A stretch of 64,000 nucleotides of DNA from a virus, in IMG/VR virus record IMGVR_UViG_3300020186_000001, positions 1-64,000 of that record. One strand, written 5' to 3'. Made by a program: the position numbers and the translations under genes. Below the pieces are notes generated by a model. That model saw only the letters and a list, made by a program, of their open reading frames with translations. It was not told where the DNA came from and did no database searches. Position 1 is the stretch's first letter. Each line of letters starts with the position of its first letter. Of the stretch, positions 2,053 to 21,403 are shown piece after piece.

Positions 2053-2733
2053 ATGAATCAGGAAATCCTCAAATGGATAAGAATTGTAGTCATGCGAACG
2101 CTGCGAGAGAAGAACCTCACAAGGCTCGATACTTCGCAGCTTATATCGGCTGGGATGCTTGGATACTGCCAGTGTATTAAAAGGTTTGATCCCAATCGTG
2201 GCGTGAAGTTCAAGACTTATGCGGAGTACAGGATTAAGGGTGCAGTGCTCGATGAGGTCAGGAAGATGATTGGCGATGAGCGTTGTAAGAATAAAAAGCC
2301 GATCCAGGTTGAATTTGATTATACTGAGATCAGCGACGGCTCACGTTGGCAAAAGTCCATGGATTCGCAGATTGACTTTGATCGGTTTATAGACCGAGTT
2401 CCGCTAGATGACCGAGAAAAGAGCATACTTCAATCTCGGCTTTTGGGGATGAATCTAAGAGAGATCTCTCAGAAATTTAGTTTCAGTGAATCGCGTGCAT
2501 CACAACTTCTCGCAAAAATCAAGAAGGTAGTTTATGGTTATCTCAGTGATGAGTTAAATCTTGATTTCAAATTAGTAGCTTATGAATGTCCGGCGTGTTC
2601 TGGAGTAAGCCATGTTGGTAGCTATGTGTCTCAATTTAAATGCGATACTTGTGACGCTGATCTAGTGATTGTGGACCGTGTTCCGATACTGGCAGTAACG
2701 GAGAACTTTGATGAGGACGACGATGTTTTCTGA
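2053..2733 (+). CDS. FliA/WhiG (sigma28)-like RNA polymerase sigma factor with C-terminal zinc ribbon
   Basis: Region 2 RFDPNRGVKFKTYAEYRIKGAVLDEVRK; region 4 LDDREK...LREISQKFSFSESRASQL; CPAC...CDTC at the C-terminus. Confidence 0.85.
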   Translation: MNQEILKWIRIVVMRTLREKNLTRLDTSQLISAGMLGYCQCIKRFDPNRGVKFKTYAEYRIKGAVLDEVRKMIGDERCKNKKPIQVEFDYTEISDGSRWQKSMDSQIDFDRFIDRVPLDDREKSILQSRLLGMNLREISQKFSFSESRASQLLAKIKKVVYGYLSDELNLDFKLVAYECPACSGVSHVGSYVSQFKCDTCDADLVIVDRVPILAVTENFDEDDDVF

Positions 2734-3748
2734 TTTAGAAGAAGTGGCTTCCTTGCTTGACGATTGCATTGAAAAAGCATTCGCCAAAAAGGGCAAAGTT
2801 CAAAAGTACGAGGATTCGATCATCAAGGGGTTGAGCCATGATCCGTTCAATCCTGTTATGATGACCGAAGAGCAGCCATACTATAACCCGTATAGGCAGA
2901 TGCAAGATGGCTCATTTTTGCCGCATAGCGTGGAATACTGGGAGAGCCAGGGCAAGTCGTCTGACGATTACAATACTACCAGACAGTTTTATCAAAACTA
3001 CATTCCCGTTTCTCAGGCTAGAGATCGTCTTGAGACGTTTTCCAGGTCTCTCAGTAACGATCTCTTTAAGGCGGGTGCGGTGCCTGTTGGAACAGTCCAT
3101 ACATACCGAGACGGTCATAAATATAAGAAGATGGGAGAAGGGCAATGGGCACCTGTGGGCGATCCTTCGGAGCGTATGTCCACTTGGCTTAACCATTCGA
3201 AGCCAGAGTATCGCCAGCAGGCCAATCAAGAGATTGAAAGACATGGAACGCAGGTCACAGCTCTTGAAGAAATGATCAAGCGTAAACAATCCGAGCAGCA
3301 GACTCAGGAGAGGGTTAAGCAAGAGATGACGAAAGAGATCATGGGCAAGGTCAAAGATGCTATGTCAAAGCTTTACGATGGTAAAATGCCAGATGAGGTC
3401 TCACAGCATTTCGATAAGAACGAGGCTAAAGAAGATGGCAAGATCAAGCCAGAAGATGCTTTGAAGGATTTGGAGAGTAAGCTTTCGCAGAACTACACTC
3501 CAAAGCACGATGTCACAGTATCGTTTATTCACAATGGAAAGCGGTATGAGCACGTCTTTCCGAACATCCAGGCCAAGGGCCATCATGATGCGATTGACAA
3601 AGTTCAGGGTGCAATATCTCAAAAGTTAAAGGGTGCTCAGGTTACAGGCATTCAGGCGTCCAGATCTAAAGAAGACAAGGGGTCCAAGGAAGGCCGGCCT
3701 CAGCCAAAAGCTGCCAAAGAAAACAATCAAGGAGCGAGTAATGGCTAA
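2723..3748 (+). CDS. putative head-associated/internal virion protein
   Basis: Long ORF in the head cluster with IEKA, IIKG and LFKA sites; LFKA is followed by VGTVHTYRDGHKYKKMGEGQW. Confidence 0.6.
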   Translation: MFSDLEEVASLLDDCIEKAFAKKGKVQKYEDSIIKGLSHDPFNPVMMTEEQPYYNPYRQMQDGSFLPHSVEYWESQGKSSDDYNTTRQFYQNYIPVSQARDRLETFSRSLSNDLFKAGAVPVGTVHTYRDGHKYKKMGEGQWAPVGDPSERMSTWLNHSKPEYRQQANQEIERHGTQVTALEEMIKRKQSEQQTQERVKQEMTKEIMGKVKDAMSKLYDGKMPDEVSQHFDKNEAKEDGKIKPEDALKDLESKLSQNYTPKHDVTVSFIHNGKRYEHVFPNIQAKGHHDAIDKVQGAISQKLKGAQVTGIQASRSKEDKGSKEGRPQPKAAKENNQGASNG

Positions 3749-5873
3749 GGATCTGAATGGCATATTCGACGATTTGATCAAGGGCGAAGGCGAAGGCACA
3801 AGAGGTGGCCAAGTCATCGGTCACACAAGTAGTGGCAAGCCTATCTATAAAAACGCCAATAATGCAGCTCATAAGACGTTCTCCAAAGAAGATCACTTGG
3901 ACGCAATCCATGCTCATGGTGCAAAGGGAGAGAAGCTTCGGGATGAGTATCATGCTCAAAGAAATTCTGATGGGACTTCATCTAAGAAGCATTTCTCAAA
4001 TATGGAAAAGATAACAAAAGAAGCTAGGTTTCATGAAGATCAAAAGGCACGTCATAGGCAGAAGTACGAGCCAAGTGCTAAGTCTCCAGACCAAAGAGAC
4101 TTCGATAGAATGGACAGAAAGAATGATCCACAAAAGCGTTCAAGTGCATCAAGACTATCAATGAAATCACAAGGAGACGACAACATGAATTTAATCAAAG
4201 CCGGAGAGGGATCTAGGCATGGGCATATCATAGGTCACACTCGCAGTGGGAAGCCGATATACCGTGGTGCCAATCATGAGTCTCACAGTAGCTTTACACC
4301 AAATGACCATGTGGATGCGGCTGCGGTTAATTTCGCAGGATTGAATCATGATAATTCAGCGAGTCATCCTGAATTTCAACAGCAAGATAAGAGTGCGGCT
4401 CGTAATGGCGTGAGGCATCACGGTTCTGCAAAGCGTGTAAAGGGTGGAGAATTAAATGGCAAGAAGCTTCACGAGGTCTCAAGCAGCGATCTTAAGTCTC
4501 ATGGAATGAATCTCATGAGTGGTAAGGATCTTCGCCGATCACAAGGAGACGATATGAGTATTTTCAAAGCAATGGGAATCACAGTTGGCGAACCTGGATC
4601 TCTTCTCAGTGAGAAGGGCGGATTTACTTTTAAATCTTTTGAGACCAACGGTGGACAGGTTGTTCGCAAGGGTGGAGCTGGCAATCCAAGAGATATGCTT
4701 GAATCACAATTGTCTAAAGGCATGATCTCCGAGTTTGTTCCTCATTTGCCTAGACAATCAAAGAAGGACGATGAGGGCGACAGTTTCGGCGGCAAATACC
4801 TAAAGAACACTCACGGCGAAGAGCATCATACTGATAACGACAAGCAGGCTGAATTCCTTCAATCTGATGTAGACATAGTTGATTCTGCATTCACGATTGA
4901 AGATGAAGAGAATCCTTTGACCGGCATAAGTTCTAGGATAGGCAAAGACCGTTCAGGTCCAAAGCCAACTGAGAAGTCACTATCTAAAGAAGACCTTCTA
5001 CTCAAGGCTTTGGATGACATTTCGTGTGATAAGGGGTTTCGTGTAGGTGTTTCTAAGAAGGCTCCAAAACCACCAAAAGATCCTGAACAGATCAGAGAAG
5101 AGCGTGCAAGCAAGAAAGAGCTTATGGGCAAGTGGGCCAAGAAGTCCAACTCTCTAATTGATTGGCATGACGACGACAACGATCCAGAACTCATTGCCAA
5201 TGTCCATGAGAACTCTGAAGGCGTGAACGAGAAGCGTCACGTTGAGAAATCAGACATTGATGAGATGTGTGATTTGATCAAGGCTGGCTCTAGGAGTGGG
5301 CATATCATAGGTGAGAGTCCTCATGCTGTGGCGGCAGTCTCGAAGCCAGCACGCAGCGGCTTTCTCAAATCTGCCGGACCAGGTGGGTTGATCTTTGACT
5401 TTGGGCATATCACTGGAAACAAGATTGCAGATGAGGCGACAGCCTTGCTGAATGCTCATGGTGATCCAGTCCAGATGTCCAACGCTCAGTATCAAAGCAC
5501 TGCCTATCAGAAGTCCCTTACTGAATTTGTGACGAAAGGTAGCGACACACACAATAAAGAAACGACTCCCTTTGGCAATATCGACAAGGAGTGGGGAAAC
5601 CAGCTCAATAAGCCAATGGACCAGCAGGTTGCAGAAGCATTCGCCAGGGGTGAGATGACTGAAGATCGCAATGCTCCAGCTATTATAAATGACTTCAATA
5701 AGGTTGAGATCAATATCGGTGGTCAAATCATCAAGGCGACTTCTGAGACAGATGCGGCTCTAATCAAGATGATGCAAGAACAAGGCATGGATCTTTCTGG
5801 AATGAACATGGGAAATGTTGTTGATGTCACAGCAGGCGGAGCCGAAAGAGTCTGTGTTGACGCGACTAATTGA
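3741..5873 (+). CDS. putative internal head polyprotein with repeated LIK(G/A)-GxxIGHTxSGKPIY modules
   Basis: AAGGAG before ATG 3741; three copies of the module; hydrophilic and His-rich. Confidence 0.65.
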   Translation: MAKDLNGIFDDLIKGEGEGTRGGQVIGHTSSGKPIYKNANNAAHKTFSKEDHLDAIHAHGAKGEKLRDEYHAQRNSDGTSSKKHFSNMEKITKEARFHEDQKARHRQKYEPSAKSPDQRDFDRMDRKNDPQKRSSASRLSMKSQGDDNMNLIKAGEGSRHGHIIGHTRSGKPIYRGANHESHSSFTPNDHVDAAAVNFAGLNHDNSASHPEFQQQDKSAARNGVRHHGSAKRVKGGELNGKKLHEVSSSDLKSHGMNLMSGKDLRRSQGDDMSIFKAMGITVGEPGSLLSEKGGFTFKSFETNGGQVVRKGGAGNPRDMLESQLSKGMISEFVPHLPRQSKKDDEGDSFGGKYLKNTHGEEHHTDNDKQAEFLQSDVDIVDSAFTIEDEENPLTGISSRIGKDRSGPKPTEKSLSKEDLLLKALDDISCDKGFRVGVSKKAPKPPKDPEQIREERASKKELMGKWAKKSNSLIDWHDDDNDPELIANVHENSEGVNEKRHVEKSDIDEMCDLIKAGSRSGHIIGESPHAVAAVSKPARSGFLKSAGPGGLIFDFGHITGNKIADEATALLNAHGDPVQMSNAQYQSTAYQKSLTEFVTKGSDTHNKETTPFGNIDKEWGNQLNKPMDQQVAEAFARGEMTEDRNAPAIINDFNKVEINIGGQIIKATSETDAALIKMMQEQGMDLSGMNMGNVVDVTAGGAERVCVDATN

Positions 5874-5895
5874 AACTTGAAATGGTGGACTTGAA

Positions 5896-8800
5896 ATGAG
5901 CATTGTTCGCGATATGTTATCTAGTTCGATTGGGTTCATAAGGGAAGAAATCATGCCCTTAAGGACCGAACTTATTAAGGCAGGCATTCTCACGCCACAA
6001 CAGACGGCCTTCGAACAGAAGGCCAGCTTAGTCGATCCGTGGGCATATGGTAGTGTCAGTCAAGGCTACAAAGAGAAGTATAGCCTTTTGGATTACTCAA
6101 AGTGTCGGCAGATTACCTATGCAGATCCTATTGTGGCAGCAGTGCTTCAGACTAGACTAAATCAGGTTGCAGCGTTCGCCCAACTGCAAGCGGATAAGTA
6201 TAAGATGGGCTTTAAGATCGTCCTTAGAGATCATGAGAAAGTTCCAACAGGTCAAGAAAAGAAGCGTATCAAGGAAATCGAACAGTTCATCCAACACTGC
6301 GGCGTCCCAGAGAACTTCGAAGACACTCCTGAACTAAAGCGTAGAGATAGCTTTGAACTGTTTTTGCGGAAGGTCGCAAGAGACTCTCTCACGTTTGATC
6401 AGGTCAACTTTGAGATCACACCTAGAAGAGATGGCAAGCCTTATGCCTTCACGGCAATTGATGCGGCCACTATCAGGGTTATTCCAGACAAGAAAGAGGA
6501 GACTGAGAGGTATCAGGCACCAAACGTAATGCCTCTTATTGATGCAACAACGACCTCAGATAGTGAAAAATTTTTCCGCGTCTTCAAACCCAAACATCCA
6601 AGATATGCTCAAGTTATCAACGGTGTCATTCAGCATGTGTTTGATGAATGGGAGATGGCTTTTGGTGTTAGGAATCCTCGTACTGACATTCTTTCATACG
6701 GCTACGGTTTTTGTTTGCATCCGGATTCTCGCGTCGCTACGACCAGGGGAATGGTCAGAATATCTGAACTTGCTGAATCTGAAGGATTCGAGGTTGTAAT
6801 TGATGGCAAGACATCAAAGGCCAAAGCATTCAAGACTGGGAACAATCGCATATTCGAATTAAGAATGAAAGACGGCAGGATCTTAAAAGCCAGTCCAGAT
6901 CATCAAATTTACTCGCTTTCCGATAGCGGTGAGTTTGGCTGGAAGCGTCTCTCGGAAATTAAGTCAGGAGATGTCGTCGCGTGTGACTTGGCCGGTCAAG
7001 CTGGTGGGATCAAGAGCTTCGAGTTCCAGTTCCATCCTGGCGATAAACAGCGGTCTAAAGAGTGGGAAATAGAATCATTTGAAGAGGACATTTGGGAAGT
7101 CCTTGGCTGGCTGGTTGGAGACGGCAATTTCAGAGAGAAACATGGGAGTCAGAAAGGGATATCCACGTCTCTTTTCTACGAAAGAAAAGTAGAAGAATCT
7201 ATCATGCGTCGGCATCTCGATATTCTTGGCAAATACAATTTACCAGTCAATGTCTACGAAGGTCGCGATGACATCTACGAAGTCAAATTCAACCATCAAG
7301 GATTCGGAGAGTGGCTTAGGTCGTTGGGGTTCATTCCGTCGAATGGATGGACAAAACCAAATTGCTTGCCAGAGGTCGTGTTCTTTCTTCAAGAGAGAGA
7401 TAGGGCAAGCTTTTTAAGAGGGCTGTTCTCCGCTGATGGACACCTCGGTGCATCGGACACACCTCATCTTGGCTGCACCGATAAGGGACTTCTCCAGGAC
7501 ACGCAAAGACTATTGTGGTCTATGGGGATGAGATCCCATTATTACCACGGCAAAGTGGCTAAGGATTTAGGATGCGGTGAAAAAGAGTACGACGACGGAA
7601 AACTGTGGGTCTACGATAAAGTTAAATTCTTTGAGAAGATTGGATTTATCCAAGATCACAAGCAGCCAGTCCTAGACACTTATCGGGGAACGCGAGCCGA
7701 TGTTGTTGGAGAGAGCTTCGGAAGACGAGCAGCTTTAGAAATAAAAGTATCTGGCAAAGAAGATCGACGTATTCGGGGTCTAATCGAATCTCCCGCAAGA
7801 TGGGGTGTCACAAGATCGTGGCTCAAAGAGAGACTGCCAGAATCTTCTCAATCACTAAAAGACCTTCATTGGCATCACGGTGTCGTCGGGTCGGTTGTTG
7901 ACACTGGCGATGAAATAGAGATGTACGATGTCTCAGTTGAGAATGACTTTCACGCTTTCGTTGTTGATGGAATTGTTGTTCATAACTCAGAAATCGAGAT
8001 GCTTGTTACGACTATCACGAGTCACATGAACGCTGAGACCTATAATCGCAAGTTCTTCAGTCAAGGATCGAGCATTAAGGGTATTCTGACGTTCGAGGGT
8101 GCGGTTCCTCCAGACCAGCTAGAGGCGTTTAGAAGACAGTGGTATCAGCAGGTGACGGGTGTCAACAACGCTTGGCGTACTCCTATCATGGGCTTGGGCA
8201 AGGATTCTAAGCTCAATTGGACTTCGCTTCACTCTACCAACCGTGAGATGGAGTTCGGCAAATGGCTTGAATACTGTATCAAGGTTATTTGCGGTGTATT
8301 TCAGATTGATCCAATTGAGATTGGTTTTGATATTTCAAAGCAGGGTTCTGGTCAGCAGTCATCTTCTGGTGGGCTTGGACAGGGCAATCAGGCAGAACGT
8401 GTGTCGTTCTCTCAAGATCGCGGCCTACGTCCACTTTTGATATTTATTCAGCAGCTTCTTAATGATTATATTGTTTACCGTATTGATCCAAACTACGAGT
8501 TCCGCTTTGTCGGCCTCAACGTCAATTCTGAGAAAGATGATCTTGAACAGGCTGTTCAGCAGGTTAAAAGCTTTAAGACTATCAATGAGATTCGTGCAGA
8601 GCATGACCTTGAGCCGTTACCAGCCTTTGACAAGATTAAGAATCCTGGTGAAGTCGTACTTGATTCGTCACTTATCCAATTCATCACTGGTCAGATGCAA
8701 GCCGCTCAACAGCAGGCCGGTGTTGGACCAGACGGTCAGCCACTTCCTCCTGGTCAGGGCGGAGCACCTGGAGATCCTAGTCAAGCGGGTGGTGATCAAG

Positions 8801-8994
8801 ATCCAAATCAACCTCAAGATGAGGGCGAAGGCGATCAAGAAGAAGAGCCTGATTATGAGAGCATGGACGTTGAACAGCTTCAGCAGGAATACAATAAGCT
8901 CAAAGAACCACAATCTCCTGGAGAGCCAGCGATGGCTCCTGCAAAGGGCAAGGCGATGACTAAGAAGTCGTTCTTCAGAGAGATCGAATTATGA
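5896..8994 (+). CDS. portal protein (intein-containing)
   Basis: RDSLTFDQVNFE, RNPRTDI..YGYGF/SEIE, FRRQW..QVTGVNNAWRTP, EMEFGKWLEY and TINEIRAEHDLEPL are typical of Twort/SPO1-like portals. Confidence 0.92.
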   Translation: MSIVRDMLSSSIGFIREEIMPLRTELIKAGILTPQQTAFEQKASLVDPWAYGSVSQGYKEKYSLLDYSKCRQITYADPIVAAVLQTRLNQVAAFAQLQADKYKMGFKIVLRDHEKVPTGQEKKRIKEIEQFIQHCGVPENFEDTPELKRRDSFELFLRKVARDSLTFDQVNFEITPRRDGKPYAFTAIDAATIRVIPDKKEETERYQAPNVMPLIDATTTSDSEKFFRVFKPKHPRYAQVINGVIQHVFDEWEMAFGVRNPRTDILSYGYGFCLHPDSRVATTRGMVRISELAESEGFEVVIDGKTSKAKAFKTGNNRIFELRMKDGRILKASPDHQIYSLSDSGEFGWKRLSEIKSGDVVACDLAGQAGGIKSFEFQFHPGDKQRSKEWEIESFEEDIWEVLGWLVGDGNFREKHGSQKGISTSLFYERKVEESIMRRHLDILGKYNLPVNVYEGRDDIYEVKFNHQGFGEWLRSLGFIPSNGWTKPNCLPEVVFFLQERDRASFLRGLFSADGHLGASDTPHLGCTDKGLLQDTQRLLWSMGMRSHYYHGKVAKDLGCGEKEYDDGKLWVYDKVKFFEKIGFIQDHKQPVLDTYRGTRADVVGESFGRRAALEIKVSGKEDRRIRGLIESPARWGVTRSWLKERLPESSQSLKDLHWHHGVVGSVVDTGDEIEMYDVSVENDFHAFVVDGIVVHNSEIEMLVTTITSHMNAETYNRKFFSQGSSIKGILTFEGAVPPDQLEAFRRQWYQQVTGVNNAWRTPIMGLGKDSKLNWTSLHSTNREMEFGKWLEYCIKVICGVFQIDPIEIGFDISKQGSGQQSSSGGLGQGNQAERVSFSQDRGLRPLLIFIQQLLNDYIVYRIDPNYEFRFVGLNVNSEKDDLEQAVQQVKSFKTINEIRAEHDLEPLPAFDKIKNPGEVVLDSSLIQFITGQMQAAQQQAGVGPDGQPLPPGQGGAPGDPSQAGGDQDPNQPQDEGEGDQEEEPDYESMDVEQLQQEYNKLKEPQSPGEPAMAPAKGKAMTKKSFFREIEL
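6712..7986 (+). mobile_element. intein with in-frame LAGLIDADG homing endonuclease, in the portal
   Basis: Starts CLHPDS; block B SPDHQIY; LGWLVGDG and FLRGLFSADG motifs; ends MYDVSV...VVHN followed by Ser. Confidence 0.95.
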
Positions 8995-9236
8995 AGTTGA
9001 ATATCGAGGCTGAGTCTCAGGCTGAGTTCGATGCGAAACGGTATGACATCATCAAGGCGGTGGCGGGTTCGGTTTACGATGTGAGCGTCAAAAAAAAGGG
9101 TGAGAAATCTGCAAATGAGCCAAGAGAGCCGTTCTACAAATCTCAGGGCGAAATGCTTGAACATTGGGACGGTAAATTTAGGGACGTTTTGGAAACGATA
9201 AAGTTTGAAATAGGTAATATCATTGATGAAAAGTAG
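8991..9236 (+). CDS. hypothetical protein
   Basis: ATGA overlap with the portal stop. Confidence 0.6.
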   Translation: MKLNIEAESQAEFDAKRYDIIKAVAGSVYDVSVKKKGEKSANEPREPFYKSQGEMLEHWDGKFRDVLETIKFEIGNIIDEK

Positions 9237-13548: not shown

Positions 13549-13755
13549 ATGCTTGATGATGTCGGGAACCCGCTTGAAGACAACTTTTTAGATCTCGTAG
13601 AGTACGCTCCAATTCCTAGTGCCTTTCATCGAGGAGCGAAGCTGATGCTTGGGGATAATTACAAAGAGCTTGGTGCTCAAATTGTCAAAGAGCATCAGCC
13701 GAAGTTAATGAAGAAGTTTGAAAGTTATTTTGATGCTAACGAAGAAACAACTTAA
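13549..13755 (+). CDS. hypothetical protein
   Basis: Starts immediately after the stop of the polyvalent protein. Confidence 0.55.
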   Translation: MLDDVGNPLEDNFLDLVEYAPIPSAFHRGAKLMLGDNYKELGAQIVKEHQPKLMKKFESYFDANEETT

Positions 13756-14755
13756 AAAGATTGAAGAGCTGATCCGACGCAAGTTTCTTGTCTTCACTTA
13801 TGAGTCTCTCGGTGAGAGGGCTTTGACCAGAGATGAGTTGAATATGCTGAAGGATGCCGGACTTCTAAGATCCACTGTGAGAAGCTTCACAGGGGACGCA
13901 TTTGCATTGGGCAAGGTCGTTGCTGCGATAGACCGCACAAAGGCTATCAAGCTTGGGTTTGATGATCTGGCAAAGCTTGCAGCAAAATCTCCCATAACAA
14001 CTGTTGAAAAATACACCATCGATTGGGCTTCAGAGCACACCGGCCAATACATCAAAGGCATATCTGATGACATGGTTAAAGAGGTCAAGACTACGGTGAC
14101 AAGGGCTGCGTCCAGTGCGATACGGGCTGTTCAAGACGAGGTGGTTTCAGCAATCAGAAATCGCAAGACTGTGAGTGAGCTAAAGACTGCGTTATTTCAC
14201 AGAATTGACGATAAATATAGGGACTGGCAGAGGGTGGCTCAGACCGAGATGAACAATGCGATTCAAAACGGCATCTATTCGTCTATTCGAGACAAGCATG
14301 GACCTGATCAGTTGGTTTATAAACGTCCCAACGCGAGTGCCTGCAAGCATTGCAAGAGAGTCTATCTTGAGGATGACGGGTTTACTCCTATCATTTTTAA
14401 GATGACCGATCTCAAGGATTCAAACTACGGTTTAAAGGCTGCAAATTGGGAGCCGACTATTGGATCTGTTCATCCGTATTGTCAGTGCCAGCTAAGCGTA
14501 GTGCCTGATGGATATGGGTTCGGGAAGAGGCGTGTCGTCACAGTTCCGTTTACCATGGGTGATAAGAAGTTCAAAATGGGGATGCAAGTCCCAGATGGGG
14601 AGTTTGATGAGCTTAGTGATGAACACAAGGGCAATGTGGGTTATGATGCGATACTGGAATATAATGGCAAGACCACTAGGCCGACTGTCAAGAAGAGTCT
14701 GAATAATCTAATAATTTCCGATATGGCAGATTACAACTGCATTTGCTGTTACTAA
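13733..14755 (+). CDS. MuF-like minor head protein
   Basis: RVAQTEMNNA, ACKHC and HPYCQC motifs of the MuF/gp7 family. Confidence 0.8.
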   Translation: MLTKKQLKKIEELIRRKFLVFTYESLGERALTRDELNMLKDAGLLRSTVRSFTGDAFALGKVVAAIDRTKAIKLGFDDLAKLAAKSPITTVEKYTIDWASEHTGQYIKGISDDMVKEVKTTVTRAASSAIRAVQDEVVSAIRNRKTVSELKTALFHRIDDKYRDWQRVAQTEMNNAIQNGIYSSIRDKHGPDQLVYKRPNASACKHCKRVYLEDDGFTPIIFKMTDLKDSNYGLKAANWEPTIGSVHPYCQCQLSVVPDGYGFGKRRVVTVPFTMGDKKFKMGMQVPDGEFDELSDEHKGNVGYDAILEYNGKTTRPTVKKSLNNLIISDMADYNCICCY

Positions 14756-14767
14756 GGGGAATGACGT

Positions 14768-16936
14768 ATGCGTTTTACTATTGATCTTGAGAAATCTTTT
14801 CGTTCACACAAGTACGTAAAACGCACAGGGTCTCCTGGAAATTACAAATACTGGTACAAAATGCCAGATGGTTCAATCCAAGCTCCAGATGACGCACAGT
14901 CTCATGGCAAGATTGATCACGCCAAGCGTCTCCTTCTTGGAGCACATGCTGGCACGCATTCTATGAGCACTCAAGATATTGCACGCCATACCGGCTTAGA
15001 TCATGAGAAGGTGACTTCTGCTAAAAGAAATTTAGCTCGTGCTGGAACGACATGGCAGGGAAGAACTTTCGCTCATCACGAATACGAGAATGAACATCTG
15101 CATGAGGCTCTTCGCTTCGGTGAGGCTGAGCCGAGTGGGAGCATTTGGAGTGGCACGAATCCTGTAGAAGCATCGCCAGCAGACACAGAGGCTAGAGACA
15201 GGGCATCTCGACCTCGTGGCAGAAGGTCGTCTCCAACGACAACTTCTGGAGTTCCAGGCGACACTCCAAGAAGAAGAGCGACTCCTCCAGTCGCTGAAGC
15301 TGACGCTCGTGCAAGAACTGCTGTTGCAACTGCGGAGCGTACCGAGGCAAGGGCGGCAAGGCGAGACGCTGAAGCCAGGACGGCAGAGGCAGCCAGGACT
15401 AGAGAGATGGGTTTATTGACCGCAGAAGTGCAGAGTGCATCTTATGGAAGAAGCATTCCGATGACGAAGCTTTCTCAGATGAAAGATTTCGCTCGTGAAC
15501 TTGTTGAGAATGGGAGAACGGCAGTGGAAGCTGCTCGTCAAGCTGTTGATAGATTCGCAATAGCGGTTGCTATTCCAGACTTGACTCCTGCAACACCGTC
15601 CGAGCAGGCTCAAGAACAGCGAGCAATCGCTGCTACTACTGCTACGGAAGCTTCTAATCGTGAGGCTGAACTGATTGCAGCTTTGAGAGAACACGGCATT
15701 AGTATTCCACACAGCTCTGAAGCAGCAGCAGGTAGGACTGAATCAAAGAGAAGGGCGGCAGAGGCGGCTCGTTTGGCTGAGCGTGCAAGAGAGTCTTCGC
15801 CATCAGCACCGCACGCAGCGGCAGTCCATGAGGCATCACCGGATTTGGCAGCAGCGGATCAGCCTATCCAACGAATGGAGGCAGCACAGGCTGCTGGTGA
15901 CAACCCGTACATTTCTCGTGCAAAAGAGATCTATCACAATATCGTTGGTGATCTAAAGCCTGAGCGTAAAGAGGCTATTAAGCACGTTCTTCAGGCGATT
16001 GCAGACTTACAAGCTGGCGGTGCTCCGCTGAATGAAGCCAATATTGTTGATCGTTATAAAAGTCTTTCTGGCAAGCGTATCAGGGGTATTTCTGGCATTG
16101 CAGAAGAGTTTGAAAAAGGCACGTTCATGTCTCTTCAAGAGATTATGGAGAACAAGCCTGTTGATCCAGAAGTCGAACGTATGAAGCGTGGTTATGCGGC
16201 AAAGCAATTTGCTCGTGTGAAGCCATTTCTAAAATCAGCATGGTCAGATGCCAACCCCTCGGCCCCACCTCCGATGCCGACATTCGGTGACATGAAGTCG
16301 TGGACAGAACATGGATCAAGGCCGGATTGGGCTGGAACGACACGTCTTGCTGTGCCAAAAGAAGTTCATGATGCCGTTCACAAGGGTGCTGATGGTAAGC
16401 CAAAGTATCCGCCAGCGTGGATGCCGATTCACATGATGCCAACATGGAACTATGTGATGAAGAAGGCTGGCGATGATACCCCATACGAGGCTCGCAACGT
16501 CAACATCCAACAAGGTCGATTGAATCTTGGAAATCAAGCATCTTATCAAGAGGGCATGGTTATCGCATCGTTAAGAAAATACATTCAGATGCGTGGCGGA
16601 GCGGATCAATTGACTGACATCCCATCTCACAAGCTTTCTGAAGTTGGGTTGACTCATTCAGATATATTTAAGGCGGTAAAATTTGCCGATCACGATCTCT
16701 CTGATGCAGCAATCAAGAAAATCATGAAACACAAGATCCTTGATCCGATTGCCTTAGCACCGTTTATCGACAAAGAAGTCGGCGGCAAAAAAGACACCAA
16801 GAAGTCATTCTCGTTGGTTGTCGATACCAAGCTATCAGAGGTATCCTTTCGAAAGTCCTTTGTAGTCCGAGGCGAAGACGCTGTTAAGAAGGCTGAGTTG
16901 ATTTCGAAGATTAGGGCAATTAGAGCTAGGGGATGA
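14768..16936 (+). CDS. putative internal head protein with N-terminal HKY module and HTH
   Basis: LEKS followed by HKYVKRTGSPGNYKYWY; STQDIARHTGLDHEKV is HTH-like; Ala/Arg-rich linker. Confidence 0.6.
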   Translation: MRFTIDLEKSFRSHKYVKRTGSPGNYKYWYKMPDGSIQAPDDAQSHGKIDHAKRLLLGAHAGTHSMSTQDIARHTGLDHEKVTSAKRNLARAGTTWQGRTFAHHEYENEHLHEALRFGEAEPSGSIWSGTNPVEASPADTEARDRASRPRGRRSSPTTTSGVPGDTPRRRATPPVAEADARARTAVATAERTEARAARRDAEARTAEAARTREMGLLTAEVQSASYGRSIPMTKLSQMKDFARELVENGRTAVEAARQAVDRFAIAVAIPDLTPATPSEQAQEQRAIAATTATEASNREAELIAALREHGISIPHSSEAAAGRTESKRRAAEAARLAERARESSPSAPHAAAVHEASPDLAAADQPIQRMEAAQAAGDNPYISRAKEIYHNIVGDLKPERKEAIKHVLQAIADLQAGGAPLNEANIVDRYKSLSGKRIRGISGIAEEFEKGTFMSLQEIMENKPVDPEVERMKRGYAAKQFARVKPFLKSAWSDANPSAPPPMPTFGDMKSWTEHGSRPDWAGTTRLAVPKEVHDAVHKGADGKPKYPPAWMPIHMMPTWNYVMKKAGDDTPYEARNVNIQQGRLNLGNQASYQEGMVIASLRKYIQMRGGADQLTDIPSHKLSEVGLTHSDIFKAVKFADHDLSDAAIKKIMKHKILDPIALAPFIDKEVGGKKDTKKSFSLVVDTKLSEVSFRKSFVVRGEDAVKKAELISKIRAIRARG

Positions 16937-16937
16937 A

Positions 16938-17159
16938 ATGGAAATAGACTTGGACTGTCCACATTGCAGGGGCAACATCGTCAAGTCCTATGGTGACACG
17001 GTGAAGATGCGTTCAAAGCTTCTCAAGTGGGAGCGAGGTGGTATGTTCGCGATCTGTAAAGCTTGCGGCACAGACGTTCCAATTGATTTAGAGCTTATGA
17101 AATCTATCCAGGCTAAATTTATTTATGAAGTCAACTCTAAAAAAACTTGCTTTGAATAA
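16938..17159 (+). CDS. zinc-ribbon protein
   Basis: CPHC...CKAC. Confidence 0.7.
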   Translation: MEIDLDCPHCRGNIVKSYGDTVKMRSKLLKWERGGMFAICKACGTDVPIDLELMKSIQAKFIYEVNSKKTCFE

Positions 17160-17255: not shown

Positions 17256-18896
17256 ATGAGCAATTTTTACGTTGGCGAAAAAGATTTTAGAGTATGGCTT
17301 CCAGAAGTTGACTTCTGTGAGAAGGCCGATGACTCTGAATCATTTGATTCGCGAAAGCTGACTGGCATCATGTCCACTCAGCGTAAAGATCGTCAAGGCG
17401 AAGTCGTTGACGCGAAGGGTCTTGAGTTTGACGAATTCCTTCAAGCCGGTCACTTCAACGATAATCACTCCCAAGAAACATCTGCAATTGTGGGCTATCC
17501 GCAATCTGTTCGTTATCATACAAGTCTGGCTCAATTCACTGATAACAAGATTCAGGCTCCTGGCTGGACTTGTGAGGGATATGTTCTAAAAGGGACTAAG
17601 CGTGCAGATGGTATCTGGGAATTAGCGAAGGCTCTCAGAGAAGTTCCAAATCGCAAACTTGGATTCTCAATCGAGGGCAAAGTCCTTCGAAGAGCAGACA
17701 AGACTATCGAAAAAGCCAAGATCAGGAACGTAGCTATAACAAATTGCTTCCCTGGGGACACGGCTGTTTCAGGTGCCGCTGAAAAGGCAATGAGACGCTG
17801 GTATTCAGGAGATATGATTGAGATTAATTTGGCGACTGGAGAGAAACTCACCGGAACACCTAATCACCCTATATTCACGCAGCGTGGCTGGATAGCTTTG
17901 GGTGAGATTGATGAAGTCAATGATTGCGTTGGACGCTTCGATGTTGATCTCGCGAAAGCGGCTTCTTTTTCTAAGATCGCCCATGACATAGATGACGTTC
18001 CAACCACTATTGAGCAGATATTCAATGCGTCTCTTATTCCTGGAGACTCTCTCTGGATCAATAAGGCTAGAGAAAGAAATTTCCACGGCGACGGAGCCGG
18101 AAGCGATGTCGATGTTGTATTGTCCAACGGACTTCTGAGGGACCGCCTCAAAGCCTCTTTCTCGAATAAATTCGGCAACAATGTTCTCACCGTTGCCGAT
18201 AAAAAGTTGTCGAGATTCTTTAGTCTTCGACTTCTTAACAAGCTCGTCCATGCTGGACTTTGTTCCGCGTCTGGCTTCATTCGCAGCTTTAGCAAACAGC
18301 AATCTCTCGCTGGGGCTTCTTCTGGCATTTCTGGTTCTGTTGGTCTCTTGAATAGATCTAGCGATGCCGTGTCTTTTGGCGACATTGTGAACAGTTTCAC
18401 GAGTGACTCCGTATCGGGAGGCGATAAGGGAAGATGCCTCTCCGCGTCTATAGGCTTCAGCAATGTCACTCTCAAGCGAAGGTTCAATTTTTCTGGCCAT
18501 GTTTTTAATCTCGATACAAAAAATGGATGGTATCAGGCCAATGGCATAGTCGTCCACAACTGCCCAGTAAACACTGATTGCACTTGGGATCTAATCGCCA
18601 AATCATTTAATGAAGCAGACTCGGCTGTAAAGGCTATGACTGCTGGATTCGCAACATCTCCAGCCGCTCAGACGGGCGGTGGTGCAGTGAGATCTGAGTC
18701 TCTTGATTCAGATATCAAAGATGTGCATGGCGACAAGAAAAAGAAGAAAAGACAAGAGTCTCTGATGAGAGCTATCGCATTCGACGATATGGAAAAAGCA
18801 ATGGAATTGGTTTTAGAGCGTCGTCCTGATTTCGATGAGGATGCAGCGGCTATTTTTATTAAACATCTTTTCATGAAAGGAGGACAGCTATGCTAG
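17256..18896 (+). CDS. prohead protease (intein-containing)
   Basis: STQRKDRQGEVV, FNDNH, LGFSIEG (catalytic Ser) and VAITN/CPVN; lies upstream of scaffold and major capsid protein. Confidence 0.9.
   Translation: MSNFYVGEKDFRVWLPEVDFCEKADDSESFDSRKLTGIMSTQRKDRQGEVVDAKGLEFDEFLQAGHFNDNHSQETSAIVGYPQSVRYHTSLAQFTDNKIQAPGWTCEGYVLKGTKRADGIWELAKALREVPNRKLGFSIEGKVLRRADKTIEKAKIRNVAITNCFPGDTAVSGAAEKAMRRWYSGDMIEINLATGEKLTGTPNHPIFTQRGWIALGEIDEVNDCVGRFDVDLAKAASFSKIAHDIDDVPTTIEQIFNASLIPGDSLWINKARERNFHGDGAGSDVDVVLSNGLLRDRLKASFSNKFGNNVLTVADKKLSRFFSLRLLNKLVHAGLCSASGFIRSFSKQQSLAGASSGISGSVGLLNRSSDAVSFGDIVNSFTSDSVSGGDKGRCLSASIGFSNVTLKRRFNFSGHVFNLDTKNGWYQANGIVVHNCPVNTDCTWDLIAKSFNEADSAVKAMTAGFATSPAAQTGGGAVRSESLDSDIKDVHGDKKKKKRQESLMRAIAFDDMEKAMELVLERRPDFDEDAAAIFIKHLFMKGGQLC
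17745..18560 (+). mobile_element. intein (272 aa) in the prohead protease, without an in-frame homing endonuclease
   Basis: Starts CFPGDT; block B TPNHPIFT..GW; block F SGHVFNL; ends IVVHN followed by Cys; removing it restores AITN-CPVN. Confidence 0.92.
17805..18500 (-). CDS. antisense-encoded HTH + DUF559/Vsr-like (PD-(D/E)xK) endonuclease nested in the intein
   Basis: 231 aa from MARKIEP; HTH SSLIASRYGVTRETVHNVAKRHG; nuclease GENIVAEFIRERG..PQKSVGQYNIDIA..VAVEI...RIEYLLNSGWNVIYV. Confidence 0.82.
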   Translation of the reverse strand: MARKIEPSLESDIAEAYRRGEASSLIASRYGVTRETVHNVAKRHGIARSIQETNRTRNARRSPSERLLFAKAANEARRGTKSSMDELVKKSKTKESRQLFIGNGENIVAEFIRERGFEAVPQKSVGQYNIDIASGSVAVEISFSSLIDPERVSRNKRRIEYLLNSGWNVIYVMGDLRKRSRFREINIEASNAIIDFINLTQSYPATLREYRVIRCSGEFLSSRQINLNHIS

Positions 18897-19102: not shown

Positions 19103-19120
19103 CAAGGGAAGGAGTTTCAA

Positions 19121-19930
19121 ATGAGCGTCAAAGTAACAAAAGACAAAGTTGAGAAAGCTCTTGCCTCCCTCGAACTAGCGTTGGCTGGCGATGGGGATGA
19201 GACGGTTAGCAAGGCGTCAGATGACGACCTTGATCAACCAGAGGGTGCGGATATGGGCAATCCTGCAAAGGATAAGATGTCTGATTCTGCCAAATCAAAA
19301 AAGGCGATGAAAAAAGCCGAAGATGAAGATGAGGGCGATGAAGATTCTGGTGAGCAAATGGAGAAGAAAAAGAAGTCTTTCGATAAGAAAGCTCCTCCAT
19401 TCATGAAGAAGTCTTTCGACGATCTCCCAGAAGAAATCGAAACAAAGATTGACGTTTCTGATTTCCTCAAATCACTTGTCAACCATACTGGCGATTGTCT
19501 CGACAATCTGTCCGAGTTCGTTGCTAAAAGCGACCGCTTGAACAACCAGCGTTATGGAAGTCTTGAAGAGGCTGTTGAAGAAGTTCAAAAGTCTCAAGCC
19601 AAGATCGGCATCGTACTGAAGGCAATTTGCCAACGCATTGGCGTTATCGGTGCGGCTCCTGCCAACGCTCCCAGGTCTGAGACTGTTGTTAAATCAGCAG
19701 CAACAGCTACGGATCGTAGCTTCTCTTCTGGCTTAGAAGGCGAAGGAACAGAGGCTCCAATGTTTAAGAGTCTTTCGCAGAATCCAATCATCGCTAAATC
19801 ACAAATGGCTAATGCTCTTTGCGATCTAGTCCGAAAGGGTGAAGCACAAGATTTGGATGTTATCGGTTTTGAGAGCGGTGGATATATCCGTCCAGAACTA
19901 GTTTCTAAACTAAAAACAGTTCTTAACTAG
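19121..19930 (+). CDS. putative capsid scaffolding protein
   Basis: Acidic, coiled-coil character; immediately before the major capsid protein; more than 10 xxK(S/A) sites. Confidence 0.7.
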   Translation: MSVKVTKDKVEKALASLELALAGDGDETVSKASDDDLDQPEGADMGNPAKDKMSDSAKSKKAMKKAEDEDEGDEDSGEQMEKKKKSFDKKAPPFMKKSFDDLPEEIETKIDVSDFLKSLVNHTGDCLDNLSEFVAKSDRLNNQRYGSLEEAVEEVQKSQAKIGIVLKAICQRIGVIGAAPANAPRSETVVKSAATATDRSFSSGLEGEGTEAPMFKSLSQNPIIAKSQMANALCDLVRKGEAQDLDVIGFESGGYIRPELVSKLKTVLN

Positions 19931-19945
19931 AAAGGGGAATGAATC

Positions 19946-21403
19946 ATGTATCCAGCAGTAGATCCAAAGCAATTTGAATCGCATGGAGAGGGGTTCGGGA
20001 TCTCCGACGCTCAAACCGTTGCAGACCTGAATAAAGCACTAACAGCGGGCTACGCAGTCGATCCTGGCACGCAATCACAAGGCGGAGCATTGCGGGTTGA
20101 GTCTCTTGACTCTACTCTCAAAGTCGTCTCGTTCATGGAAAAGAACATTGTCATGTACAATGCTATTCCTAAGACGAAAGCCTACAACACTGTCGAAGAG
20201 TATAACCTGCTCTCGAAGTACGGTGGACGTGGTGGTTTCTTCATCGAAGAAGGTGGACTTCCTAGAACTGAAGATTCCAACTACCAACGCAAGGCAGCGT
20301 TCGTGAAATTCATGGGAACAACCCGTGAAATTTCTCACCCAATGTTGTTGGTTCGTCCAGCACACGGTAACGTCGTTGCTCTTGAAACTAAGAACGGTGC
20401 AAAGTGGATGCTTCAAAGGATGGAAGAGTCTCTCTTCAATTCTAACTCAAGCATCATCTCGCAAGGATTCGATGGTCTTCGCAAGCAATTGCTAGACGGC
20501 TATTCTGATCCAACTACGGCTGGCGACGGCATCTCAAGCGTGTCTACTGAGCATATCTTTGATATGCGTGGTAAGACCTTGGGTGAAGCAGTATTTGAAG
20601 AAGCTGCTCGCGTTCTTTTGGATAACTACATGTATCCAACGCATTGCTTCTTGAACAACACGAACCACTCTGATTTCAACAAAGTATTCTTCTCCAAAGG
20701 ACGCTACCAGCTTCCTGTCGGTGCAGACGCTACTGTTGGTTTCGTGGTTGATAAGGTCAAGACTTCTGGCGGAGTTGTTCAGCTTCATCCAGACGTGTTC
20801 CTTCGTGTCAATCAAACCGCTGCTGCTTCGGCAGACAACGCAGCGTCTCCTACGGCTCCTGCGACTGTCGCTATCACTGTCGGTGTTAAAACCACTTCTC
20901 GTGGATTCAAGGCTGGCGAGTATGGCACATACGCTTATAGCGTAGCTGCTATCTCAAAATCTGGTGAATCTGCTGCAACGGCTGGAAACGTGTCGGCTGT
21001 GATCACTTCGACTAACGTCGAGGCTACCATCACAATCTCTCGCGGTGCAGTATCGGGCAACGATTTGACTCAAGGCTACCGAATCTATCGCACACGTCTT
21101 GAAGACGGAGCGGCTGGCGTTAAGTATCTTGTTCGTGAAATCGCTTCTGCTGGTGCTTCGACTATCGTCCTTGACGGTAACGAAGATCTTCCAGGACATG
21201 GTACAGCATACATCGGTCAGATGGATGAAAGCGTGTTGACTCTAAGAGAGCTAAGCCCAATGCTTAAGTTCCCATTGGCAACCGTTGCGTCGTCGATCCG
21301 TTGGATGCAGTTGTACTACAATGTTCCAATCGTGTTCCGCCCTCGTGGTTGGATCGTGGTGAAAAACATTGGATTCTTGAAGCAACCAGATCTTTCGCTT
21401 TAA
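19946..21403 (+). CDS. major capsid protein (Twort/SPO1/A511-like)
   Basis: LNKALTAGY..PGTQSQGGALRVESLD, FDGLRK and ELSPMLKFPLA...PRGWIVVKNI resemble the Herelleviridae capsid protein. Confidence 0.93.
   Translation: MYPAVDPKQFESHGEGFGISDAQTVADLNKALTAGYAVDPGTQSQGGALRVESLDSTLKVVSFMEKNIVMYNAIPKTKAYNTVEEYNLLSKYGGRGGFFIEEGGLPRTEDSNYQRKAAFVKFMGTTREISHPMLLVRPAHGNVVALETKNGAKWMLQRMEESLFNSNSSIISQGFDGLRKQLLDGYSDPTTAGDGISSVSTEHIFDMRGKTLGEAVFEEAARVLLDNYMYPTHCFLNNTNHSDFNKVFFSKGRYQLPVGADATVGFVVDKVKTSGGVVQLHPDVFLRVNQTAAASADNAASPTAPATVAITVGVKTTSRGFKAGEYGTYAYSVAAISKSGESAATAGNVSAVITSTNVEATITISRGAVSGNDLTQGYRIYRTRLEDGAAGVKYLVREIASAGASTIVLDGNEDLPGHGTAYIGQMDESVLTLRELSPMLKFPLATVASSIRWMQLYYNVPIVFRPRGWIVVKNIGFLKQPDLSL

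Follow-up and report, generated by a model that had tools for sequence, protein, structure and literature searches.

Lysine junctions resembling the capsid maturation site, followed by basic domains, as candidate prohead-protease sites in the head cargo proteins of a phage

The window (the whole 64,000-nucleotide stretch of DNA analysed, from an uncultured phage, positions 1 to 64,000 of IMG/VR record IMGVR_UViG_3300020186_000001) carries a head-gene block encoding portal, MuF-like, prohead protease, scaffolding and major capsid proteins, together with four further proteins of 346, 710, 1441 and 722 residues (Table 1). The gene of the 1441-residue polyvalent protein lies between the portal gene and the MuF-like gene, and this order is the same in relatives, where MuF-like homologues (45–57% identical) occupy the same place. 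The MuF-like protein, whose C-terminal tail comes after TVKK↓S, matched no Pfam family, Phage_Mu_F included. A megablast search with the whole head block gave no match. The strings quoted in the original prediction were recovered by a six-frame scan, with HKY in frame at 9736, 11623, 14807 and 3116 (out of eight such tripeptides over the six frames), G(H)T.SGKPIY at 3819 and 4233, and a partial copy at 5274.

Table 1. Features of the head-gene block, in window positions. Arrows mark the junction after lysine.
Feature	Position	Strand	Basis
346-aa head cargo protein	2708..3748	+	ORF position; no Pfam or PHROG match
Candidate site NDLFK↓A in 346-aa cargo	about 3062-3079	+	motif
Module VPVGTVHTYRDGHKYKKMGEGQWAPV in 346-aa cargo, after NDLFK↓A	about 3086-3163	+	sequence
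710-aa cargo protein, probable ATG start 3741	3741..5873	+	ORF
DDLIK↓G, then GHT.SGKPIY module 1	3774 to about 3917	+	motif, repeat
MNLIK↓A, then GHT.SGKPIY module 2	4191 to about 4331	+	motif, repeat
MSIFK↓A site in 710-aa cargo	about 4560	+	motif
CDLIK↓A, then partial GHT module (CDLIK↓AGSRSGHIIG)	5274	+	motif
Portal protein with intein and LAGLIDADG domain	5896..8994	+	Pfam Phage_portal, Intein_splicing, LAGLIDADG_3
Portal N-terminal candidate site TELIK28↓A29	5968-5982	+	conservation
1441-aa polyvalent protein, three predicted cassettes	9223..13548	+	Pfam NUDIX 6.2e-17, LPD1 7.3e-14
Cassette 1: Nudix	aa 19-127	+	Pfam
Cassette 2: ELFK168↓G, HKY domain 1 (aa 172-254), HEWGH aa 636, LPD1 aa 704-774	9736-9984 (HKY domain 1)	+	
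Cassette 3: DLFK791↓G, HKY domain 2 (H801), unknown C-terminal part	11623 to about 11892 (HKY domain 2)	+	
MuF-like head morphogenesis protein	13718..14755	+	weak phrog_2468 match (3.3e-4); position after portal fits family
722-aa conserved head protein	14768..16936	+	AF2 model, conservation
Leader MRFTIDLEK9↓S10, then HKY domain (aa 14-93) of 722-aa protein	14807-15046 (HKY domain)	+	AF2
Second site SDIFK635↓A636 in 722-aa protein	about 16661-16675	+	conservation
Prohead protease interrupted by intein	17256..18896	+	phrog_1028 1.4e-46
Copy of capsid N-terminus, ADSAVK459↓AMTAGF, in protease C-terminal part	about 18615-18650	+	alignment
Scaffolding protein, 12 h-x-K↓(A/S/G) sites in 269 aa	19121..19930	+	motif count
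Major capsid protein, SPO1/A511/phi812 type	19946..21403	+	phrog_752 4.7e-88
Predicted capsid maturation site ADLNK30↓A31	20021-20038	+	alignment with A511 K23↓S24

The capsid protein is 36–41% identical to those of Herelleviridae. A search with it matched 781 phage records, with 80% or more of the query covered in 774 of them, and, in the PDB, 9vel (chain 9vel_C, 2e-77), 5lii and 9row. K30-A31 was kept in 22 of 22 homologues. The original prediction had equated LNK↓ALTAGY with the site after which the A511 capsid protein is matured, and this agrees with the A511 Cps record, which annotates the mature peptide from residue 24: A511 DALK↓SFTTGYG aligns with ADLNK↓ALTAGYA of the window. The A511 site was reportedly identified by N-terminal sequencing. 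Chain 9row_B (439 aa) begins three residues ahead of TGYG, that is, directly after the K of VVK↓SFQTGYG in the 463-aa chain 5lii_P; we take both chains to be from phi812 or a phi812-type staphylococcal phage. Removal of an N-terminal propeptide after Lys is predicted for the window capsid protein.

The protease carries a copy of this segment (positions 18627–18794 versus capsid residues 29–84, 39% identity), and an alignment of both proteases and both capsid proteins revealed that the A511 protease carries one too. The window protease and those of two relatives (L003, L045) match phrog_1028. The Peptidase_S78 model of Pfam was unmatched by all three (residues 1–170 for the window protease), with no Pfam family at E≤0.01, and a phmmer search of PDB sequences with the protease N-domain gave no match. 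Since there is neither a Pfam match nor a solved relative, the specificity of this protease is deduced from the capsid site only. The scaffold has the highest site density in the genome, and the lysines of its sites are 83% conserved among 20 homologues, versus 52% for its other 20 lysines; a conservation value for the protease, which had only two homologues, was left aside. In the scaffold-like gp85 of A511 the motif occurs twice versus 1.4 expected, which is no enrichment; dense site use is therefore not general for this protease type. For the portal, [DE]L-x-K↓AG was present in all 12 sequences having a complete N-terminus.

The motif [LIVMF]xK[ASG] was found 67 times in the head genes (6120 aa), versus 29.2 +/− 5.2 expected from shuffles that randomised residue order and retained the composition of each protein; none of 500 shuffles reached 67. 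Neck and tail genes had 29 motifs (35.8 expected), and the remaining genome 75 (73.5 expected). The comparison of head with tail genes proposed in the original prediction thus revealed a head-specific excess, which is beyond chance. All five related genomes gave the same result, with 52–56 motifs in head genes versus 20–25 expected (0 of 300 shuffles each), and downstream genes at expectation; these genomes are not independent events, because their ancestry is shared. The motif had been expected throughout scaffold, protease, portal and MuF. This was true of the scaffold, and not of the portal (two in 1032 aa) or the MuF-like protein (one in 345 aa). Capsid, portal and cargo have D-L-x-K↓(A/G/S) in common, P1 being Lys. 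A stricter motif, [DEN]-L-h-K-[AGS], was set post hoc, after inspection of the data.

The polyvalent protein unites in a single chain at least two effector or enzyme domains that are unrelated to each other (NUDIX, LPD1, plus the HExxH motif). Its two long HKY copies are genuine repeats of one another (40% identity over 99 aa, E 1e-22), and its homology to relatives breaks at residues 159, 251, 778, 784 and 785. In one relative (L008), residues 159–785 correspond to a separate 692-aa gene that starts with MNNFELNLLK↓SRPHKY, and residues 778–1441 and 784–1435 reappear behind other N-terminal parts in two others (L004, L003). Peptide patterns retrieved no close relative of the 1441-aa protein from viral contigs, and a word search with residues 140–270 returned only the protein itself.

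Unrelated modules are preceded by the same leader, as is, once, a 12-residue C-terminal tail (P0151, P0157, L026_198_3773). Homologues of the 346-aa protein (L023, L025, L033, L036, L037) retain [DT]L[FEI]K↓[AG] and VP[VI]GT.HTY.DG..YKK. The HKY module proposed near position 3063 has to be redefined, as the family reads VP[VI]GT[VI]HTYxDGxxYKK...GxWxPV and, of six homologues, only the window copy spells HKY. The two GHT copies of the 710-aa protein are 58% identical over 45 aa (E 2e-15). The suggested search for this module across phages located it in seven database proteins, in up to three copies each and always after DL[ILV]K↓[AGS]. In the AlphaFold2 model of the 722-aa protein, residues 1–12 have a pLDDT below 50, and the hairpin (16–31) and helices (41–93) a pLDDT of 85–96; a disordered stretch, a helical part and a C-terminal domain follow. 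K635 is at least 90% conserved in 40 sequences, and the site H.[DE][IL][FY]K↓[AGS] is kept in most relatives.

A profile search of 1.84 billion representatives, also suggested in the original prediction, detected the HKY domain in 629 protein clusters at E≤1e-3 (129 at E≤1e-10). These are mostly phage polyvalent proteins, in which the domain lies between enzyme domains, with up to four copies per protein. Junctions were counted in the 149 top matches of the 629, which yielded 188 modules in 142 proteins, spanning clusters less than 50% identical to one another. K[AGS] was present at most 14 residues upstream in 171 of the 188 modules, 12 were located at a protein start of the form M-x-x-HKY, and five had neither. 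The spacing from K to H was 1 to 10 residues (3 residues in 103 cases), and P3 was L or I in 134 cases. In a variant, K[AS]xxGxxxxG-HKY, glycines between K and H are conserved. The leader ahead of HKY measured up to about 45 residues and was absent from the 12 proteins whose start coincides with the position after K; the leader thus seems dispensable, which argues against an essential loading propeptide. In the 11 matches with Pfam annotation, 22 of 22 HKY modules sit between Pfam domains; domains in HKY-bearing matches include SNF2, RelA_SpoT, PBECR2, MuF, ddrB-ParB, Zeta_toxin, 2H/Acb1, Kinase-PolyVal and ART.

The modules had been described as short and hairpin-like, whereas the AlphaFold2 models consist of a hairpin plus three to four helices, about 85 aa in all. 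In both models (722-aa and 1441-aa proteins) the K is located in a low-confidence leader, immediately ahead of a confident domain. Modules are strongly basic, with a mean charge of +3.8 over 25 residues versus +0.35 for random 25-mers, the search pattern itself forcing two basic residues. The idea of an acidic leader was abandoned, the 15 residues before K averaging only −0.54 versus +0.27 for random 15-mers.

Comparison of ten sub-segments with Pfam at E≤5 gave only chance-level rows, and nothing relevant for the HKY domain. No clear structural relative emerged from fold searches (VIA wide, best Z 3.4; BFVD, best E 0.053), and with the 722-aa model the best Foldseek match in the PDB had an E of 0.75. 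There are weak hints, from two structure searches, of a helix-turn-helix behind one hairpin, and the helix-turn-helix leads in the protein atlas are sub-threshold. The group has no cultured member, and a tblastn search of 50,697 phage records with both long HKY modules and the N-terminus of the 722-aa protein returned nothing meaningful. The tblastn matches of another protein, P0061, in cultured phages were to MuF or 2H parts only, and the translated protein of Acinetobacter phage Ab105-2phi is without HKY. The locus search used the narrower alignment A4, alignment A2 being too diverse. The strings HKYIKR, HKYVKR, HKYIRR, HKYLRK and SGKPIY were absent, in a phage context, from the literature searched (the one match is an unrelated plant paper), and no report of such sites was found in the literature on polyvalent proteins with MuF, proteolysis or virions. 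The HKY domain is an undescribed but widespread family, which may equal one of the LPD1-40 domains of Iyer et al. (2017).

In a second phage group (seven loci, both sites being read in only some), HKY is preceded by E-[LI]-K↓, directly after a Peptidase_S78 domain. At the capsid site this group has VELK↓A, VNLK↓A, TNLK↓A or VGLK↓A, E-L-K↓ being shared by capsid and cargo; the window group has D-L-x-K↓ in cargo and capsid alike. Seven proteases of the second group match Peptidase_S78 (1.7e-15 to 4.7e-6), and an eighth (L068) does so at 0.0047, below the model cut-off. The residues before the cargo site thus appear to change in step with those before the capsid site across two protease families, by a by-eye comparison of five capsid proteins and about ten cargo sites, which supports the cleavage reading.

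We consider it probable that the prohead protease of the phage itself cuts the cassette proteins of the head block at K↓(A/G/S) while they are in the prohead. We infer both the cleavage and the identity of the enzyme from comparative evidence, namely homology to the capsid site, the head-specific excess, the layout of leader and domain, the cassettes and the co-variation. The cleavage part of the original prediction, that of polyproteins cut by the prohead protease, is to this extent borne out; well supported but unproven, it is the most likely reading. With sites and a following domain in the cargo, large multi-enzyme proteins are therefore probably split inside the head.

The proposed scheme is as follows. 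The proteins of 346, 710, 1441 and 722 residues would be internal cargo, each built of cassettes, in which an acidic/hydrophobic leader ending in (D/E/N)-L-h-K is followed by A, G or S, a small basic domain and an effector or structural part. The junction, identical in sequence to the capsid maturation site, would be cut by the prohead protease in the prohead; the same enzyme would degrade the scaffold at its 12 sites, trim the portal N-terminus and cut its own C-terminal part. The 1441-aa protein would give three pieces: Nudix, an HKY domain with the zincin-like/LPD1 part, and an HKY domain with the C-terminal part. All pieces but Nudix would have a basic hairpin domain at their N-terminus, be it of HKY, GHT.SGKPIY or GT.HTY.DG..YKK type. 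Speculatively, and with much less assurance, these domains may tie the cleavage products to the packaged DNA, or have some other role in packaging or ejection. It is conceivable, but we think it doubtful, that leader, K↓(A/G/S) and basic hairpin domain form a portable cargo grammar used with at least two prohead-protease families, in which any enzyme placed behind the junction would enter the prohead within a polyprotein, be freed by the maturation protease, be held on DNA by its basic N-terminus, and leave with the genome.

The leader and basic domain might instead be an uncut interaction element, with (D)L-h-K-(A/G/S) as a linker or short linear motif by which cargo docks on scaffold, portal or capsid during assembly, the likeness to the capsid reflecting a shared docking site. 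T4 propeptides are said, in the part of the source available, to target proteins to the prohead core (PMC10052503), the protease's copy of the capsid N-terminal segment could be a docking mimic, and the conserved glycines of the K[AS]xxGxxxxG-HKY variant hint at structure between K and H. However, the homologous capsid position is a real mature N-terminus in A511 and in the phage of 9row_B, the leader seems dispensable and is of low model confidence, the K-to-H spacing is variable, and 12 scaffold sites are as expected of a degraded protein; docking without cleavage seems to us rather unlikely. That the whole recurrence is a functionless by-product of composition or common descent, in head proteins rich in Lys and in Ala, Gly or Ser and with duplicated modules, is disfavoured and highly improbable. 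Lysine is indeed followed by A, G or S more often in head proteins (0.29 of lysines versus 0.20–0.23 elsewhere in the genome), and the HKY pair and the GHT pair each represent an internal duplication, leaders included, but composition-keeping shuffles never reach the observed count, the lysines of scaffold sites are the better conserved ones, and the junction is kept in most modules of clusters less than 50% identical.

Processing of the polyvalent protein by its own zincin-like peptidase, with the prohead protease uninvolved, would fit its HEWGH motif beside the LPD1 match, and the available text of Iyer et al. (2017) argues for P1 DdrB being processed by a C-terminal metallopeptidase ahead of packaging (PMC5512222). 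We regard it as improbable. AHE[WFYL]GH occurs in only two ORFs of all fetched loci (L008, L067), whereas the K↓(A/G/S)-HKY junction is kept throughout; the same junction is found in the 722-aa, portal, scaffold and capsid proteins, all without a peptidase, and its sequence agrees with that of the capsid maturation site.

Polyvalent proteins rank with the largest phage proteins and with the least understood, also as regards the release and delivery of their many enzyme domains. Should the junctions be maturation sites, sequence alone would suffice to predict the mature products of hundreds of such proteins. The counter-defence enzymes in them (Nudix, RelA/SpoT, 2H/Acb1, kinases, ARTs, SNF2) would then work as individual molecules, and a domain that is widespread but unannotated (629 clusters at 50% identity) would gain a defined place in head biology. 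Cuts after Lys are invisible to ordinary tryptic virion proteomics, so that such processing may be overlooked in many phages. The cassette structure suggests a route to loading chosen proteins in phage heads. If the portable grammar were real, the HKY domain would be a general ejection or DNA-anchor address, with cassettes swappable in nature and in the laboratory.

The Herelleviridae (A511 Cps, 5lii_P, 9row_B, SPO1 Gp6.1) have a homologous capsid protein, the same K↓(S/A)-x-T-(A/G)-G-(Y/H) junction and the C-terminal copy in the protease. They differ in that A511 gp85 is without dense reuse of the motif, and in that the three module queries had no meaningful tblastn match in the phage records searched. 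In adenovirus, the virion protease trims precursors of basic, DNA-associated core proteins within the capsid; neither these proteins nor the protease nor the virus lineage is related, and the analogy concerns only the speculative role as DNA anchor.

In T4 and giant phages (SPN3US gp245, phiKZ, 201phi2-1), according to the portions of the sources available, one head protease cuts capsid, portal, scaffold-type proteins, itself and cargo at one motif, as proposed here. Their propeptides exit the head, and 14 sites in nine proteins are given for SPN3US (PMC10052503). In the same accounts, these proteases cut after Glu (A-X-E in SPN3US), whereas P1 is Lys here, and substrates lose N-terminal propeptides, with only the protease losing a C-terminal one, whereas internal sites would here split multi-enzyme proteins. 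Unlike in these phages, a conserved basic domain here follows each site, and the proteases are of other families (phrog_1028 type in the window, Peptidase_S78 in the second group). The polyvalent proteins of Iyer, Burroughs, Anand, de Souza and Aravind (2017, J Bacteriol; PMC5512222) are likewise large, multi-domain and encoded among head genes, here with Nudix and LPD1. The available part of that paper proposes embedded metallopeptidases and mentions neither prohead-protease sites nor an inter-domain hairpin domain; it predicts that polyvalent proteins are packaged and injected. Virions of phi24B contain an LPD1-bearing protein, according to the part available of a preprint (10.64898/2026.04.10.717836).

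The parent viral record is 108,329 bp long with direct terminal repeats, and the window is its first 64 kb. Its head-gene block (2.7-21.4 kb, + strand) is detailed in the following table. An N6/N4 DNA methyltransferase (5e-55; 147-1313) and a sigma-70-like factor (regions 2 and 4; 1942-2733) are encoded just upstream.

Genes of the head block, with positions in the window
Feature	Position	Strand	Match
Protein without assigned function, 346 aa	2708-3748	+	
Protein without assigned function, 710 aa	3741-5873	+	
Portal, intein-split	5896-8994	+	
1441-aa protein, NUDIX and LPD1 domains	9223-13548	+	
Weakly MuF-like protein	13718-14755	+	
722-aa conserved protein	14768-16936	+	
Prohead protease, intein-split	17256-18896	+	phrog_1028
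Scaffold	19121-19930	+	
Capsid protein, SPO1/A511/phi812 type	19946-21403	+	phrog_752 5e-88; 36-41% identity to Herelleviridae capsid proteins

The portal intein comprises Intein_splicing (aa 286-697) and LAGLIDADG_3 (aa 503-552); related portals span roughly 590-690 aa, mostly, it seems, without an intein. The insert of the protease is intein-like and about 270 aa long (aa 165-435; Pfam Intein_splicing 7.6e-7, below the cut-off). Among related proteases it is present only in that of loci L016/L025 (553 aa), the L003 homologue being intein-free at 283 aa, and a 250-aa ORF runs antisense through it (17805-18557, minus strand). A 73-aa ORF (16938-17159) separates the 722-aa gene from the protease gene; it has two Cys pairs (CPHC...CKAC), a zinc-ribbon-like look and three sites of the loose motif.

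The original prediction was that head polyproteins are cut by the prohead protease at hydrophobic-x-K↓(A/S/G) sites (↓, predicted cut), and that the modules behind these sites are tags. All strings that it quoted were found in frame where it had placed them. Two long copies of the HKY module truly repeat each other, with 40% identity across 99 aa (E 1e-22), and two GHT.SGKPIY copies share 58% identity over 45 aa. With exactly the predicted motif, [LIVMF]-x-K-[ASG], and residue shuffles as the null, the head proteins contained 67 sites in 6120 aa versus 29.2 +/- 5.2 expected, a number reached in none of 500 shuffles. The neck/tail block had 29 sites (35.8 expected) and the remaining genome 75 (73.5 expected). 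A motif no more frequent in head genes than elsewhere had been named as the refuting outcome; since the motif is in excess in head genes and near expectation in tail and other genes, this test does not refute the prediction. The recurrence is genuine and not due to chance. The densest gene was the scaffold (12 sites in 269 aa). Recurrence throughout portal and MuF, also claimed, did not hold up: neither was enriched (2 sites in 1032 aa and 1 in 345 aa, respectively). A stricter motif, [DEN]-L-h-K-[AGS], was set only after the data had been looked at.

The capsid protein provides the reference site. In the A511 record the mature protein is annotated from residue 24, and A511 DALK23↓SFTTGYG aligns column by column with ADLNK30↓ALTAGYA of the window, the lysine being invariant in all seven rows. 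The A511 site was reportedly determined originally by N-terminal sequencing. The 439-aa PDB chain 9row_B starts three residues ahead of TGYG, at the position that follows the lysine of VVK↓SFQTGYG in 5lii_P (463 aa), and the SPO1 Gp6.1 counterpart reads DALNK↓ALEAGH. K30-A31 was retained in 22 of 22 capsid homologues. The C-terminal part of the window protease (18627-18794) is a copy of capsid residues 29-84 at 39% identity, junction included, and the A511 protease also carries a copy of the capsid N-terminus; this segment may serve for self-cleavage or mimic the capsid for docking. The window protease itself had no Pfam match and no PDB relative.

Searches with the capsid protein yielded 18 viral loci (70-83% identity) and searches with the HKY module 48 loci. 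Five related genomes had both head and downstream genes available. In all five, head genes contained 52-56 sites versus 20-25 expected (0 of 300 shuffles each), and downstream genes were at expectation; these genomes share ancestry and are therefore replicates of one conserved state, not independent events. In 20 scaffold homologues, site lysines were 83% conserved and other lysines 52%, and all 12 portals whose N-terminus is complete had the N-terminal site [DE]L-x-K↓AG.

AlphaFold2 models were made for the 722-aa protein (alignment of 40 sequences, mean pLDDT 77.6) and for a polyvalent-type module (14 sequences, 77.1). Both have a low-confidence leader in which the site lies and DL-x-K forms a one-turn helix, followed by a confident beta-hairpin (HKYxKR...YxYxY) and three or four helices; in the models, hairpin and helices form a single predicted domain of about 85 residues. 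It had no Pfam family at E<=5 and no clear structural relative (best Foldseek PDB E 0.75, VIA Z 3.4, BFVD E 0.053). Helix-turn-helix proteins listed for the helices of the 722-aa protein in two weak searches are a lead only. The same protein has a C-terminal domain (aa 345-722; 15800-16936), with pLDDT above 90 across most of aa 340-570, that is conserved in 40 sequences with many invariant Pro, Trp and Arg and was without match in Pfam, PHROG and PDB. Its gene comes after the MuF-like gene in every relative with both genes available.

A profile of 18 HKY modules, run against 1.84 billion representatives, matched 629 proteins at E<=1e-3, of which 129 remained at E<=1e-10 and 2 at E<=1e-30. The best 149 of these 629 matches, the window's own protein left out, were surveyed with modules picked by a simple pattern, which gave 188 modules in 142 proteins, 34 of them with two to four each. 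The 33 listed matches of at least 1000 aa that were scanned are typical phage-type polyvalent proteins, bearing NUDIX, SNF2, RelA_SpoT, LPD1, PBECR2, MuF, MuF_C, ddrB-ParB, Zeta_toxin, Acb1/2H, PolyA_pol plus HD, Kinase-PolyVal and an ADP-ribosyltransferase; seven matched no Pfam family at 1e-5. A comparison of 11 annotated proteins placed all 22 of their modules between Pfam domains. The basic modules carry a net charge of +3.8 per 25 residues versus +0.35 in random 25-mers, a figure to which the search pattern itself contributes two forced basic residues.

Among the 188 modules from the best 149 of 629 matches, 171 had K-(A/G/S) at most 14 residues upstream, and 12 began the protein (M, two or three residues, then HKY), which is the position just after the lysine; five had neither. 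In these listed matches the residue after the predicted cut was A in 96, S in 43 and G in 32 junctions; P3 was L or I in 134, P4 was D in 74, and the lysine-to-histidine spacing ranged from 1 to 10 residues (3 in 103 cases). Because the spacing is variable, the leader dispensable and the model confidence low there, we argue that the lysine marks a boundary and lies outside the fold.

This leader, frequently in the longer form K-S-x-D-D-x-x-D-L-h-K, is also found in front of unrelated elements: GHT.SGKPIY modules, the GT.HTY.DG..YKK module of the 346-aa family, Gly-rich basic stretches and one 12-residue C-terminal tail. The clearest example of such putative site punctuation is a 1192-aa protein (L026, a related locus, 198-3773), in which six near-identical leaders, KSVDGALDDL-h-K↓, each precede a different Gly-rich basic stretch. 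Homology of the 1441-aa protein to its relatives is broken at the sites. Its residues 159-785 form a separate 692-aa gene in L008, starting MNNFELNLLK↓SRPHKY; L004 and L003 have residues 778-1441 and 784-1435 joined to other N-terminal parts; and L016 has a counterpart of residues 14-251 (Nudix and HKY domain).

In more distant HKY loci the head genes differ in type: the proteases are Peptidase_S78 and the capsid proteins phrog_1328/10/617. In three of them (L054, L059 and L061; ORF starts 9404, 6562 and 9404), HKY directly follows the S78 domain at residue 200 and precedes a C-terminal part, with a weak coiled-coil-type match in L061; protease, junction, HKY and C-terminal part are therefore one protein. 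HKY is here preceded directly by E-[LI]-K (EELEIK↓HKY, DLELK↓HKY), and the capsid proteins read VELK↓ALN, VNLK↓ALG, TNLK↓ALN and VGLK↓AHG, each ahead of a GTAGYA segment. Since cargo and capsid both shift relative to the window's group, the register of the cargo site (E-L-K here, D-L-x-K there) appears, in few sequences compared by eye, to follow that of the capsid site.

On the simplest reading, the prohead protease would cut the predicted cargo at the same K↓(A/G/S) junction as on the capsid protein. It would likewise break down the scaffold, trim the portal and cleave its own C-terminal part. Three pieces would arise from the 1441-aa polyvalent protein; from the 722-aa protein, a leader of 9 residues and a C-terminal part of 87 would be removed. 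The predicted new N-termini are A31 (capsid), A29 (portal), S10 and A636 (722-aa protein), G169 and G792 (1441-aa protein), the G behind DDLIK and the A behind MNLIK (710-aa protein), and the A behind NDLFK (346-aa protein). Processing could instead be due to the zincin-like motif (HEWGH, aa 636) embedded in the 1441-aa protein; Iyer et al. (PMC5512222) described polyvalent proteins and proposed that metallopeptidases embedded in them do the processing. Across all fetched loci, HEWGH-type motifs were found in just two further ORFs, which makes this a poor general candidate. Against cleavage by the prohead protease speak A511 gp85, which shows no dense motif use, the negative searches for Pfam and PDB relatives of the window protease and for cultured relatives, and the post hoc choice of the stricter motif. 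Our preferred guess, a tentative one, is that the basic domains act as DNA anchors or in ejection; the predicted cleavage of the cargo is well supported by comparative evidence. Maturation cuts after lysine yield peptides of fully tryptic appearance and are therefore invisible to standard trypsin-based virion proteomics.

No cultured relative was found by megablast of the head block or by tblastn of three module queries (50,697 phage records), and a literature search returned no paper on lysine junctions or the HKY domain. HKY is a widespread domain family that we found undescribed; it may coincide with one of the LPD families of Iyer et al. An LPD1-bearing protein is reported from phi24B virions in a preprint (10.64898/2026.04.10.717836). 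The nearest known system is that of T4 and the giant phages, in which the head protease matures internal and ejection proteins; for SPN3US, 14 sites in nine proteins at A-X-E are reported, where every substrate cut removes an N-terminal propeptide (PMC10052503).
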